From Octopus vulgaris (lineage: Eukaryota): DNA of 64,000 bases. The notes beneath the pieces are model-generated. The model saw only the letters and a list, made by a program, of their open reading frames with translations. It was not told the origin of the DNA and did not search any database. This document shows positions 22,880 through 43,030 of this stretch, piece after piece (the stretch's first letter is position 1; each line of letters opens with the position of its first letter). The position numbers were made by a program, and so were the translations under genes. The stretch is from contig OX597818.1 in NCBI GenBank assembly GCA_951406725.2, positions 17,298,001-17,362,000 on the forward strand. Direction: 5' to 3'.

Positions 22880-23565
22880 GTGCGAAAGTCTTCGGCCACT
22901 TTAAATTATTTTAAATTTCTACAACTTACCAACTTGTTAGTGAATGTTTCGCGTTGCGTTTTTTTTACTAATAAGCGAGAATTTGTCAGAAGGCCTTGCA
23001 GGAAAGCGAAACGACCCACGTTACACGACGAAAACAGTGAAGTTTGGGGGTAAGAGTCTGATGCTTTGGGGATACATAAAATGTGATGGTCCAAGAAAAT
23101 TGGTTATAATTGCAACTAACTTGAATAGGACAATTTGATACCAAACTTTTTCAGCATGACGGAGCTCTATGTCTCAGATTGCGTACAATACAACAGGGTC
23201 TGACTGATGAAGGTGTTACCGTATTGAAAGATTGGCCAGCTCAGAGCCCTGACTTAAATATCATCGAGCAAATGTGGACAGAACTAAAGAGAAGAGTTTG
23301 TCAGAAGAATCCACGCAATCTTGAAGAGTTGTGGGAGCTCAGGCATACATAATGGCATCTTATACCTGTGAATATGGTGAACGAATTGTACGTATCTCTT
23401 CCCAGGTATATTGAAGCAATTATTCAAGCTTAGGAAAGCCACATGAAATATTAACAATGTATAATAACTTCTAGAAATTAATTTCCATTATAGACATTTT
23501 TCTGTTTTAAAACACTGTAACTTGATTGGTTTATGTGAGGTGACCGAAAACTTTTGCACGGCCAT
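22880..23565 (+). mobile_element. Tc1-like (DD34E) transposon 3' remnant
   Basis: TTKTVKFGGKSLMLWGYI; QHDGA; WPAQSPDLNIIEQMWTELKRRV; end aaaacttttgcacggc. Confidence 0.85.
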
Positions 23566-24064: not shown

Positions 24065-24109
<45 letters not shown>

Positions 24110-24290
24110 AAAGGGCTTAGTAAAATAAATTACTTTGCCGCATACTGAACTCATTAGAAATAGCAGCTAAAAAAACTTTTTAAAACTATTTCCAATACTT
24201 AAAGAAAATCTCTCTCATATAGTGTTTGCTCAATTCAACCCACGAAAGTATGGGGGTAGAGACATTAAAAAATCAAATGCAAAGGTTATT

Positions 24291-24343
24291 TGAGAACGTA
24301 CGTTTCAAGATTAGTCAAACTCGACACTTCTATCATCAGCTCA
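24291..24343 (-). ncRNA. Mirror hammerhead ribozyme in the left arm of the palindrome
   Basis: Exact reverse complement of 24465-24517. Confidence 0.75.
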
Positions 24344-24464
24344 GAACTCCCTGGTTTGGATTTGAAAACACTGAAAGTGGGAGCATACCCTTTCGGCTTC
24401 CCGATGGGAAGCCGAAAGGGTATGCTCCCACTTTCAGTGTTTTCAAATCCAAACCAGGGAGTTC

Positions 24465-24517
24465 TGAGCTGATGATAGAAGTGTCGAGTTTGACTAATCT
24501 TGAAACGTACGTTCTCA
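24465..24517 (+). ncRNA. Minimal type I hammerhead ribozyme in the right arm of the palindrome
   Basis: tgag CTGATGA tagaagtgtcgagtttgactaatctt GAAAC gtac GTT ctca; stem I tgag/ctca, palindromic loop gtac, imperfect stem II. Confidence 0.75.
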
Positions 24518-24801
24518 AATAACCTTTGCATTTGATTTTTTAATGTCTCTACCCCCATACTTTCGTGGGTTGAATTGAGCAAACACTATATGAGAGAGAT
24601 TTTCTTTAAGTATTGGAAATAGTTTTAAAAAGTTTTTTTAGCTGCTATTTCTAATGAGTTCAGTATGCGGCAAAGTAATTTATTTTACTAAGCCCTTTTA
24701 TATAATGTAATAATTTGAATTCGCCTTAAATGGTCCCTTTGCATACTGAATACTTGGTGAAATTGATTAATTAATTAATTTTACCCCAATTGTTGAAATT
24801 G

Positions 24802-24839
<38 letters not shown>

Positions 24840-38725: not shown

Positions 38726-38733
38726 CATATACA

Positions 38734-40022
38734 CAAGGTGCGATGGGTAAATTGTTGCCATTTTATATATTTTTGTGGGGTTGCGTCCTGAAGGACGACC
38801 TAGATAGATAGATTTATATTTTTGATTTGCCGCATGCGCATTGATTGCTTTTGTCGACTACACAATATAGTAGGGTCAGTTGAGCACTGTCTGTGAGAAA
38901 AACAGCATCATGACACAATTCACTCTGCCAGCAATTTGGAAACGACATGTTGTGCTACTTGGGATTTGCGCCAGAAGCTCCAATACTAACATTTCAGTGT
39001 TTGAGTGTCAATCTGAGGACAGTGCAAAGGATTCTATAAGAGTCTAATAGTGATTACGAAAGTACGGCAGCACGGAAAAATTACTCTGATCGTCCTGATT
39101 TGTTGGTGAGATCCAGACCATGATTGACAACAATCCTTCCAAGCCAATCAGGTCCATTCCCAGGGACATGAGAGTGTCTGAGTTTCTTATCAGGCAGGCG
39201 GCCCATAAAGACATTCGGTATTCCTCATACAAGATGAGAACGGATCACTTTTTATGCTAAGCCATCAAGGACCGCGCTACAAAGTTTTTGAACAAACTCA
39301 AGCAACCCCTCCAATCGAACATGCTTTGGCTTTTCTCAGACGAAAAAAATTCTGCCAGGATCAGATGGTGAACACACAGAACAACCGTGTCCCCAAAACA
39401 TTACCGAGAGTGATAAAAATCAAACATCCAATCAACATCATGGCGTTTGGAGTGATCACTAGTGGTGACGACGTTATGCCTCCATTCATCTTCCCACACG
39501 GCCTAAGACTCAACACGGAAGCCTACATTAAGTGCCTGGAGGAAGTTGTGCTGCCCTGGGTCAAGAGGGTAGCAGCTGGAACACCCTATGTTTGGCAACA
39601 GGATTCTGCACCATGCCACACAAGCAGGAGAACCCAGTCATGACTGTCAGACAATTTCTGCGACCACATCACTCCTAACATTTGGCCACCTAACTTCCCA
39701 GACTACAACCCCCTTGGTTATCATATGTGGGGTGCAGTTGAGCGAGAGATCAACAAAACTCCTTGTAAAACCAAAGATGAACTGAAGGCAAAGGTTATGG
39801 CAGCATTCACCAACTTAAGCAAGGAGACTGCCCAGAAGAGTTGCAGGAGATTCCGAAGTCGTCTGGAGGCCGTGGTTGATGCTAATAGTAATTTTTTTTT
39901 AAATAAATGTACTCTTTAGTATTTCGAGATATGTTATTTTGGTAAATATTTCTGTCAAAATGAGATGACCGTGTTATTTTCATTTCTGCGTAAGCTCGAT
40001 ACAATTTATTTATCGCCCCCTG
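38734..40022 (+). mobile_element. maT/DD37D-type Tc1/mariner element, near full length, pseudogenised
   Basis: FSDEKKF, MAFGVITSG, WQQDSAPCHTSRRTQS*; ends caaggtgcgatgggtaaattgt / acaatttatttatcgccccctg-TA. Confidence 0.9.
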
Positions 40023-40088
<66 letters not shown>

Positions 40089-40213
40089 TAAATTAGAGAT
40101 AAAACCACTATTAGGCAAATCATACAATGAAAAACTTAAGCCAATACATAAGATTATTTAATTTATATTATTTAAATATATAACAAAATTATTTTAAAAA
40201 ATATAATTAATAT

Positions 40214-40281
40214 AACACTACGATCGTTTCATGGCTGTTAATTTCTTTAAATTTTCAAGTTACAGTCATTCATCAGGTGGT
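40214..40281 (-). ncRNA. Minimal type I hammerhead ribozyme, tandem copy 1
   Basis: Minus strand: accac CTGATGA atgactgtaactt...aattaacagccat GAAAC gatc GTA gtgtt. Intact core, stem I cac/gtg, long stem II, palindromic loop 3, GUA triplet. Confidence 0.85.
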
Positions 40282-40376
40282 TTAAATATTTAACTTGGCG
40301 AGGTTTACTATAAAATTGGATTCAATCCTAAATCTGATTTTTCCCTGTAAGTTTGGATTTATTCCCTAATATTTAT

Positions 40377-40429
<53 letters not shown>

Positions 40430-40559
40430 TATATTAAATTAGAGATAAAACCACTATTAGGCAAATCATACAATGAAAAACTTAAGCCAATACATAAGAT
40501 TATTTAATTTATATTATTTAAATATATAACAAAATTATTAAAAAAAATATAATTAATAT

Positions 40560-40627
40560 AACACTACGATCGTTTCATGGCTGTTAATTTCTTTAAATTT
40601 TCAAGTTACAGTCATTCATCAGGTGGT
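40560..40627 (-). ncRNA. Minimal type I hammerhead ribozyme, tandem copy 2
   Basis: Same motif as copy 1, 346 nt away. Confidence 0.85.
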
Positions 40628-40885
40628 TTAAATATTTAACTTGGCGAGGTTTACTATAAAATTGGATTCAATCCTAAATCTGATTTTTCCCTGTAAGTTT
40701 GGATTTATTCCCTAATATTTATTATTATATATATATATATATATATATATTATATTATATTAAATTAGAGATAAAACCACTATTAGGCAAATCATACAAT
40801 GAAAAACTTAAGCCAATACATAAGATTATTTAATTTATATTATTTAAATATATAACAAAATTATTTAAAAAAATATAATTAATAT

Positions 40886-40953
40886 AACACTACGATCGTT
40901 TCATGGCTGTTAATTTCTTTAAATTTTCAAGTTACAGTCATTCATCAGGTGGT
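40886..40953 (-). ncRNA. Minimal type I hammerhead ribozyme, tandem copy 3
   Basis: Same motif, 326 nt from copy 2. Confidence 0.85.
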
Positions 40954-41048
40954 TTAAATATTCAACTTGGCGAGGTTTACTATAAAATTGGATTCAATCC
41001 TAAATCTGATTTTTCCCTGTAAGTTTGGATTTATTCCCTAATATTTAT

Positions 41049-41091
<43 letters not shown>

Positions 41092-41490: not shown

Positions 41491-41921
41491 GATTGCATTT
41501 TATAACGAACGGGTGTACGGTGCACCACATGTCAGGTATCGAAGTGATCGCAGAGCAACATGAGATTGCATTTCATAACGAACGGTGCGCCACATGTGGT
41601 ACGGTGCACCACATGTCAGGTATCGAAGTGATCGCAGAGCAACATGAGATTGCATTTTATAACGAACAGGTGCGCCACATGTGGTACTGTGCGCCACATG
41701 TGGTACTGTGCACCACATGTCAGGTATCGAAGTGATCGCAGAGCAACATGAGATTGCATTTTATAACGAACAGGTGCGCCACATGTGATACGGTGCACCA
41801 CATGTCATGTATAGAAGTGATTGCAGAGCAACATGAGATTGCATTTTATAACGAACAGGTGCGCCACATGTGGTACGGTGCACCACATGTCAGATATCGA
41901 AGTGATTGCAGAGCAACATGA
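41491..41921. repeat. Minisatellite: five ~73-104-bp units with a variable 19-bp internal subrepeat
   Basis: Unit gattgcattttataacgaacaggtgcgccacatgtggtacggtgcaccacatgtcaggtatcgaagtgatcgcagagcaacatga; runs into a family C SINE head. Confidence 0.95.
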
Positions 41922-42181
41922 GATGGAGTGTTTTGCTCAAGAACACAAAGCACCACTCGGTCCAGGAATTGAAACCCGGGTCTTACGATCGTGAGGGCAA
42001 CACCCTAACCACTAGGCCATGTATTCTCACAGCTACAATACAAATAATAAATGAAGCAACAACACAAATAGCAACAACAACCACAAAAATACTACACATT
42101 AACAGCATCGACAAGAACAGTAACAATAACTGTAACAACAATTGCAGAGGCACAAACAATAAACTGAAAAGGTTTTCTTAC

Positions 42182-43030
42182 CTTTGAACTTGGTGACAAT
42201 GGTTTCCACATGTGACCACCCTTGATTAACTTGACTGAGTTGAGTGCCAAGTGGAATTGGCCAATAACACAATGTCTGGAATACTTATCAAAGTCTTTGA
42301 CTAAAATCTCAAGAATTCTCATCTGAGCTTCCTTATAAGGAATCTCAAACATGAAGTATTCGTTCCAAGTTGGGTCCTGTGTCTTGCGCTGTACTGTTGA
42401 CTGCTGCGAGTTCTTTTGGTCTGGAAGCAAGGAGATCTTGCAGTAAGGGTTCGACCGGGCCATATCTTGACGTTCCTTATCCAAGCAGTACGGTGCCGGT
42501 AAGTCTTTAGCCTCGATAATTTTAACCATAAGGACCTTTTCTGACACATCATACTGAAGTCCGAAGTGGATCTGACCGAGTTGATACCTGACTAGTTTTT
42601 GTTCATCGGTTAACCCCTCGCTTTTGTTTACCTCGTACAGTTCTCGCTGGAAGTTTTCGACGCTGATTTCCGCTTCACTCGGATGACGCCGTTTTGGACG
42701 TGGTTGAATGCTCTCGCGATTTGCTGCCCAGAATTCTATCGGTTTCATATCGATGATGGGTGTCTTACCGGCGCGTCGATAATCATTCATCAGCGTTCCT
42801 GTAGACGACGTAGAGTCTGTACGGGCACGGCTGTCGATCGAGTCGACGCGATCCCGTGACGAGACGCTCTCGCTATGACTGCTCGTCGAGTCAAGACGGG
42901 GATTATGCACTGAATGCTGGATGTCACTTTTCGAGATCTTTTTCTCCTGAAACCAGTGACAGTCGCAGCAGCTCTTCACACCTTGTTGGCAGCATAAAAA
43001 CTCCCATAACTTCTGGAGAAGCTTCTGTGG
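42182..43030 (-). CDS. SYT17: Synaptotagmin-17 orthologue, large internal exon (N-terminal Cys cluster, linker, C2A domain)
   Basis: Acceptor ttctctttccactgttgtAG|CCA at 43030 and donor AAG|GTAAGA at 42182; 849 nt, phase 0/0. Translation PQKLLQKLWEFLCCQQGVKSCCDC...PIIDMKPIEF...LTDEQKLVRYQLGQIHFGLQYD...RQDMARSNPYCKISLLPDQKNS...DFDKYSRHCVIG...KGGHMWKPLSPSSK matches remembered SYT17-specific motifs (IDIKPIEF, QDMAHSNPY, LLPDQKNS, KGGHWWK). No transmembrane segment. Confidence 0.93.

Follow-up and report, generated by a model that had tools for sequence, protein, structure and literature searches.

The question raised by this locus is whether three hammerhead ribozyme (HHR) motifs lying in direct tandem in Octopus vulgaris constitute a retrozyme, as a first-pass annotation proposed, or the remains of another mobile element. 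Comparison of the 64,000-nt stretch analysed here (the window) with related copies across the genome suggests that the array most likely represents a dead, spliced copy of the leader of a Penelope-like element (PLE), tripled in place.

The array consists of three units read on the minus strand, each 298 bp long: unit 3 (40755..41052), first in the RNA and made of an inverted tail and a spliced PLE leader, unit 2 (40429..40726), and unit 1 (40083..40380), last in the RNA. Strandless (TA)n linkers of 48 nt (40381..40428) and 28 nt (40727..40754) separate the units, and outer (TA)n target tracts, likewise without strand, flank them at 40023..40082 and 41053..41079. TRF confirmed the tandem period with 3.1 copies, and the GC content of the array is 22%. 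No ATG ORF of at least 30 aa recurs with the units, the longest overlapping ORFs measuring 39-56 aa. The annotation's picture of ORF-less units of ~300 bp, spaced 346 and 326 nt apart and joined by (TA)n, is thereby confirmed, with unit starts at 40083, 40429 and 40755.

All three units are complete, and any pair differs at 2 sites, the differences across all three amounting to 3 sites, one 3' end and the linker length. The 3' end of unit 1 has one AATAT repeat less than those of units 2 and 3. These differences bear on whether the triplication is real. Assembly stutter at the TA tracts, with a true locus of one unit, would be consistent with unit differences that fall mostly at a T/A homopolymer boundary and in TA length, and with the finding that no contig in four DNA runs spans the array. 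Conversely, unit 3 carries one private, non-homopolymer substitution, 2 nt from the splice junction described below, and each of the three units has its own state at the T/A homopolymer boundary at constant length. The assembly, with 227 contigs for 2.8 Gb, suggests long reads, and similar TA-linked tandems occur elsewhere, making stutter quite unlikely.

The array lies inside a synaptotagmin-like gene. The C2-domain part of a host exon occupies 42182..42610 on the minus strand, with 'B/K protein' as its best PDB match (E 7.8e-48), which we take to be SYT17. The exon ends at 42182, with its GT donor at 42181; the array lies 1129 nt away, in agreement with the annotated placement on the gene's strand about 1.1 kb past a splice donor. 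A subsequent C2-type exon frame of the host gene is found at ~19.5-19.8 kb, so the array is intronic and sense to the host. Two neighbouring repeats were also observed. A high-copy element with imperfect inverted ends, presumably Tc1/mariner-like, directly abuts the array's TA tract (38730-40022), and young 84-104-bp tandem repeats with 94-96% matches, another local amplification, lie 460 nt from the array (41515-41924).

Each unit carries a minimal type I hammerhead on the minus strand, at 40888..40951 in unit 3, 40562..40625 in unit 2 and 40216..40279 in unit 1, reading CUGAUGA, stem II and GAAAC-GAUC-GUA, with the CUGANGA / GAAA / NUH core present. Predicted cuts fall after 40891, 40565 and 40219, which would give pieces of 326 and 346 nt. 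Helix I comprises 3 bp plus an extension, helix II comprises 7 pairs with one mismatch plus an extension, and helix III is an 8-nt perfect palindrome, ACGAUCGU. Cores and palindrome are intact in all three units, matching the intact minimal hammerheads of Penelope type with palindromic helix III that had been annotated. The G10.1-C11.1 pair, given as typical of PLE ribozymes in the part of Cervera 2014 (PMC4209133) available to us, is absent from the array hammerheads, as is an extra base after A9, an A-U pair following directly after the core. Rfam models returned no hammerhead on the window at the gathering score and, at E<=10, TA-driven chance matches only. A loose core pattern matched the window 11 times against 2.9 expected, a number reached in 0 of 100 shuffles, and 6 of the 11 matches belong to the array. 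One loose CTGATGA..GAAA match at 23204-23229 lacks helix III and is probably due to chance.

The origin of the unit became apparent from its copies elsewhere. A genome search with the unit gave 1264 candidates, 40 of which were scored; in most other copies the unit's first 77 nt are inverted relative to the window units and follow the remainder of the sequence, and many copies form palindromes, arranged head to head, with TA on their flanks. Sequence comparison shows the unit to be composite: a PLE tail, inverted, is joined to a spliced PLE leader. In unit 1 it reads, in RNA order, as the inverted tail of ~77 nt (40304..40380, plus strand), an 18-nt exon 1 remnant (40290..40307, minus strand), a splice junction at 40289..40290 (minus strand) from which an 851-nt GT..AG intron is precisely absent, and exon 2, or pseudo-LTR (pLTR), up to the first 3' end site (40083..40289, minus strand). 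The corresponding tails of units 2 and 3 lie at 40650-40726 and 40976-41052, the exon 1 remnants at 40636-40653 and 40962-40979, and the junctions at 40635/6 and 40961/2. A 4-nt microhomology marks the joint between the exon 1 remnant and the inverted tail. The overlap with Penelope pLTRs that the annotation proposed to look for is present.

The parent is a PLE of ~5 kb, found as a partial tandem with a spacing of 4967 bp on C20 (G000:C20:10.972-10.978 Mb). From 5' to 3', this copy shows a truncated pLTR, ribozyme, first end site, ~80-nt tail and ATG, followed by RT and GIY-YIG frames, a long 3' UTR and the pLTR once more, giving the full order pLTR-HHR-tail-ORF(RT, GIY-YIG)-3'UTR-exon 1-851-nt intron-HHR-tail. 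The tail follows the first 3' end site, and the ATG of the ORF lies 57 nt beyond the tail and 335 nt downstream of the hammerhead core. The full elements seen carry stops and frameshifts, and no intact source copy is among them. The partial tandem and its flanks occur twice, at 10.97 Mb and 11.01 Mb, ~34 kb apart, probably through segmental duplication.

The parent RT frame contains YRDD; the C-terminal GIY-YIG domain that follows it scores 22.2 bits where the cut-off is 22.6 (E 1.8e-4). Neither this frame nor two 35%-identical homologues, which share its motifs, matched an RT in Pfam. Motifs recognised by eye in the translations are DKT, a CxCX5C linker, CxxC and CxH, with no CCHH; the RWK position reads KWK in the parent and RWR and RWK in the two homologues. 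By these motifs and the TA target the parent is Hydra-like. A first guess, the Neptune/Nematis clade, was dropped once the motifs matched Hydra. An asparagine-rich stretch within the PLE ORF (L125:8250-8520), also present in both homologues, resembles the N-rich inserts of Adineta Penelope elements described in the consulted part of Arkhipova 2013.

The absence of the intron is shared by many copies of the family. In long copies the intron (GTATGT..TTTTAG) measures 851 nt and ends 13 nt before the hammerhead core; the window units join precisely without it and stop 18 nt upstream of the donor. Genome-wide, exact 27- and 26-nt patterns, which miss diverged copies, found 133 spliced versus 96 unspliced junctions, with 0 in reversed controls. 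Examination covered 106 of the 133 spliced places, 100 listed and 6 from other searches, and every one of the 106 has its 5' end 14-46 nt ahead of the donor, the majority at 18-29 nt; one further spliced copy with a variant junction reaches 54 nt. Core and GAUC-GUA are intact in 84 of these 106 places. Conversely, the ends of the unspliced loci examined (n=30) are scattered between 46 nt and >1.5 kb upstream of the acceptor. Ten distinct unspliced copies holding the donor were chosen without regard to upstream sequence; seven continue for at least 475 nt, while three stop at 17, 24 and 57 nt. The 5' extent of spliced and unspliced copies differs with a Fisher p of 2.6e-9, or 5e-8 by loci, values to be read with the copies being not fully independent.

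Since the spliced copies examined all end 14-46 nt before the donor and the unspliced ones that hold the donor mostly continue, the former resemble cDNAs of a spliced 5' leader; the most economical interpretation is that the leader of a spliced mRNA was copied again and again to its 5' end. The spliced copies also read across the cut site, so the template was either uncleaved or religated; their ends at the presumed start site lead us to favour an uncleaved template. The full pLTR was compared with contigs from one DNA run and from three further runs, tentatively taken as RNA. One contig in one of these tentative RNA runs skips 851 nt with GT..AG boundaries, two contigs carry exon 1 behind TA and correspond to a genomic spliced copy, and two bridge the predicted cut site, contigs showing neither level nor ends. 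A literature search, supplements aside, found no account of intron-less or spliced genomic PLE copies or of octopus PLE ribozymes, and an earlier description is possible; the octopus repeat paper, in the part available to us, mentions Penelope and no ribozyme.

The intron-less form could instead go back to a single deletion in the genome, the derivative of which spread non-autonomously as a family, rather than to repeated splicing. Internal deletions do occur in this PLE family: an unspliced subclass including L096, L104 and L114 shares a common 129-nt deletion inside the intron, the reference ends of which do not read GT..AG. Additionally, the splice label is clustered when mapped on an exon 2 tree, requiring 14 changes compared with 26.7 after shuffling (126 of 143 rows kept, those lacking full exon 2 being dropped). 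The boundaries of the missing 851 nt are, however, exactly GT..AG, both states occur in each of the tree's three subfamilies, well-supported branches force at least 5 state changes, and the three unspliced copies mentioned above end in the same 5' zone. A single deletion derivative is therefore highly improbable, and repeated copying of spliced leaders is retained in what follows.

The mechanism that we regard as probable starts from this reading: an intron-less PLE pLTR fragment with an inverted tail, likely reverse-transcribed from a spliced 5' leader, would have been inserted into TA and likely tripled by local DNA duplication. Transcription would be driven by a promoter within the upstream pLTR; copy ends, the only guide here, would place its start ~25-50 nt ahead of the donor, and the intron there would be spliced out. 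The PLE RT of Frangieh 2024 (PMC11167929) cuts and extends both strands of AT-rich DNA and has two internal start sites, by which a tail is defined; HHR cleavage is not needed for its insertion in vitro. From this work we infer that the octopus RT likewise initiates within the RNA at two positions, which lie ~80 nt apart and bound the tail. An RT starting in the 5' pLTR would run off the RNA 5' end after ~230 nt, passing through the uncleaved ribozyme, and a second cDNA, initiated from the opposite strand at the site of the tail, would be joined head-to-head by microhomology. The window unit would be the extreme case, its inverted arm reduced to the tail and its joint to the 4-nt microhomology. 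Misalignment between the flanking TA tracts may then have duplicated the insertion twice, leaving the ribozymes of the array as passengers.

The architecture of 96 loci agrees with this account and sets the array apart: 68 are inverted, 27 are single, and one, the window array, is a direct tandem, a tandem count that rests on these 96 loci. An inverted piece is present in 69 of the 96, with the tail on exactly one arm in 67 of the 69 and on both arms in 0. The 3' end abuts TA at 76 of 96 loci, which identifies TA as the PLE insertion target, and the annotated unit carrying its own microsatellite is not upheld; nor do these 96 loci bear out a family that spread as head-to-tail arrays. A 129-bp piece from the 3' part of the same PLE, lacking the ribozyme, also forms a TA-linked tandem, with 4.1 copies (L033:13-542; G000:C4:24756520), indicating that a ribozyme is not needed for tandem formation and that local duplication is the likeliest cause of the window array. 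In the window, the unequal target TA included in the repeated unit and the completeness of all units are taken as pointing to local duplication; as a counter-point, the unit differences (3 sites, 3' end, linkers) would also be expected from repeated reverse transcription. Probably the array itself arose by local accident.

The retrozyme alternative treats each unit as a monomer with (UA)n, dimeric ribozymes freeing RNAs of 326 and 346 nt that are circularised and re-inserted by the PLE enzyme. The intact cores and palindromes of all three units would suit such a cycle, and the dimer between adjacent HHRs that had been suggested is supported by prediction, a nested dimer fold being 7-9 kcal/mol better than two monomer folds at 20 and 37 C. 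The same fold lies, however, 9-13 kcal/mol above the free ensemble, in a calculation with no active-ribozyme control and with tertiary energy ignored. A dimer fold in the host intron is accordingly possible, but as a predicted minor conformer, and low-level cleavage of host RNA by the array hammerheads would be possible. Such motifs are reported to have weak activity in vitro: a minimal PLE ribozyme, made as dimers and trimers, cleaved weakly (Cervera 2014, PMC4209133), and among Xenopus dimers 1 of 9 tandem elements cleaved and 8 of 9 did not (Li 2026, 10.64898/2026.07.22.740005). Cleavage by the Anolis ribozyme needed protein (Frangieh 2024, PMC11167929).

Classification gives the retrozyme idea some footing. 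With at least two tandem HHR units the array falls within the operational screen of Li et al. (Li 2026), and its units lie within the 150-450 nt, low-GC and ORF-less range of non-LTR retrozymes. To that extent "retrozyme-like" stands as a label; that the unit is a retrozyme monomer is not supported, the unit itself being a PLE composite. A second copy of the composite exists on C10, which would fit mobility; this copy is single, with ~5 private changes. Direct tandem at 1 of 96 loci, the ribozyme-less tandem and the lack of a randomly truncated first unit, unlike the seamless arrays of a second HHR family described below, also count against this retrozyme model, which we judge unlikely.

The C10 copy deserves separate consideration. 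The exact junction of the unit occurs at one other place genome-wide (L004:1499-1793; G000:C10:51626949), in a copy ~98% identical to the window units, its private changes falling where the window units match the family. It shares a window variant that is found in 2 of 78 other informative places. Given the shared junction and the rare variant, the composite may have moved once as a unit, as judged from these two loci; identical junctions also recur by microhomology (L007 and L008). A transcribed composite could likewise have entered the same TA tract three times, through re-priming of reverse transcription and with no ribozyme cleavage. The variation of 3' ends, homopolymer states and linkers among units, the C10 copy and the dispensability of HHR cleavage for insertion in vitro (Frangieh 2024, PMC11167929) are all compatible with re-priming, yet no other tandem of the composite was seen among the 96 loci and the source transcript is hypothetical, leaving this route distinctly improbable. 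Beside the C10 copy, between TA tracts, a third hammerhead family with a bulged A and a G10.1-C11.1 pair was observed (L004:1205-1262).

Comparison with known systems places the locus more precisely. PLE ribozymes, tails, inversions and TA targeting are already known (Cervera 2014; Craig 2021), as are the descent of retrozymes from pLTRs and their local amplification (Li 2026; Cervera 2020), within the portions of these sources consulted. Hydra-clade PLEs, as covered by the consulted part of Craig 2021 (PMC8557442), share with the octopus element a C-terminal GIY-YIG, DKT, CxCX5C, CxxC and CxH with no CCHH, an HHR in the pLTR, (TA)n targets, and inverted truncated copies with a tail at one end. 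They are generally <3 kb, which is a tendency, whereas the octopus PLE is ~5 kb, and RWK is described for them where the octopus PLE has KWK; an 851-nt pLTR intron with many intron-less copies is not described for the clade in that part of the paper. Penelope of D. virilis likewise has an intron in its pLTR/5' UTR shortly after the start site, ending by HHR helix I (PMC2377424, PMC4209133), the start site lying 46 nt upstream of the intron (Schostak 2008, PMC2377424). Its intron measures 75 nt against 851 nt, and in the portions of these accounts available it is described as keeping the intron, whereas spliced junctions outnumber unspliced ones in the octopus PLE.

Anolis Poseidon PAc (Frangieh 2024, PMC11167929) resembles the octopus element in two 3' end sites that define a tail downstream of the HHR, in an AT-rich target, and in copies that read through an uncleaved HHR. 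In contrast, its HHR overlaps the ORF start, which in the octopus PLE lies well past the core, and spliced copies, present in the octopus PLE, are unmentioned in the main text of that paper. Non-LTR retrozymes (Cervera 2020, PMC7229834; Li 2026) share with the array ORF-less, GC-poor tandem units of ~330 nt, each bearing a type I HHR, as well as a pLTR origin with local amplification as Li et al. propose. They carry a canonical HHR, as described in the consulted parts, whereas the array has a minimal HHR, joints of target microsatellite and an inversion inside the unit; their families spread as head-to-tail arrays, while the window family forms a direct tandem at 1 of 96 loci.

The array matters less as a 'retrozyme' than as evidence on why PLEs seem to keep introns. 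PLE intron retention is called of unknown significance in the available part of Craig 2021 (PMC8557442), and a possible antisense template is proposed in that of Arkhipova 2013. More than 100 precisely spliced copies, a single end zone, head-to-head inversions and tails point to a template that would be sense, spliced and uncleaved by its ribozyme. We lean, with modest confidence, towards the view that PLEs do not really 'retain' introns: RT would prime at the same internal site in both pLTRs of a sense mRNA, the spliced 5' pLTR giving short copies and the unspliced 3' pLTR long ones. The short copies would be promoter-less, intron-less and dead, ending at the start site, as the window units do. 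If true, the antisense-template model would be excluded, and spliced solo pLTRs would be a general, overlooked product and a seedbed for retrozymes. Spliced copies would also map the PLE start site from DNA alone, and a spliced/unspliced count can be applied to any genome with PLEs. The locus itself illustrates a route by which a PLE terminus can give rise to a retrozyme-like tandem, and provides minimal hammerheads in a host intron as a natural monomer/dimer pair.

A second HHR family with a palindromic GUAC is present in the same window and inside the same host gene, at 24100-24810, as a head-to-head pair with cores at 24339 (minus strand) and 24469 (plus strand) and a ~95-nt tail. Elsewhere this family, with 2008 candidates genome-wide and a GC content of 35%, forms seamless, ORF-poor head-to-tail arrays of 557-558-bp units with no internal TA. 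Such arrays comprise four units at C17:1.592 Mb and four plus four inverted units at C6:99.796-99.800 Mb, occur also on C2, C1 and C4, and account for 5 of 18 distinct sites among the top matches, a selected set. Seamless arrays of this kind would be the expected trace of rolling or read-through copying. The second family is a much better candidate for a non-LTR retrozyme than the window array.
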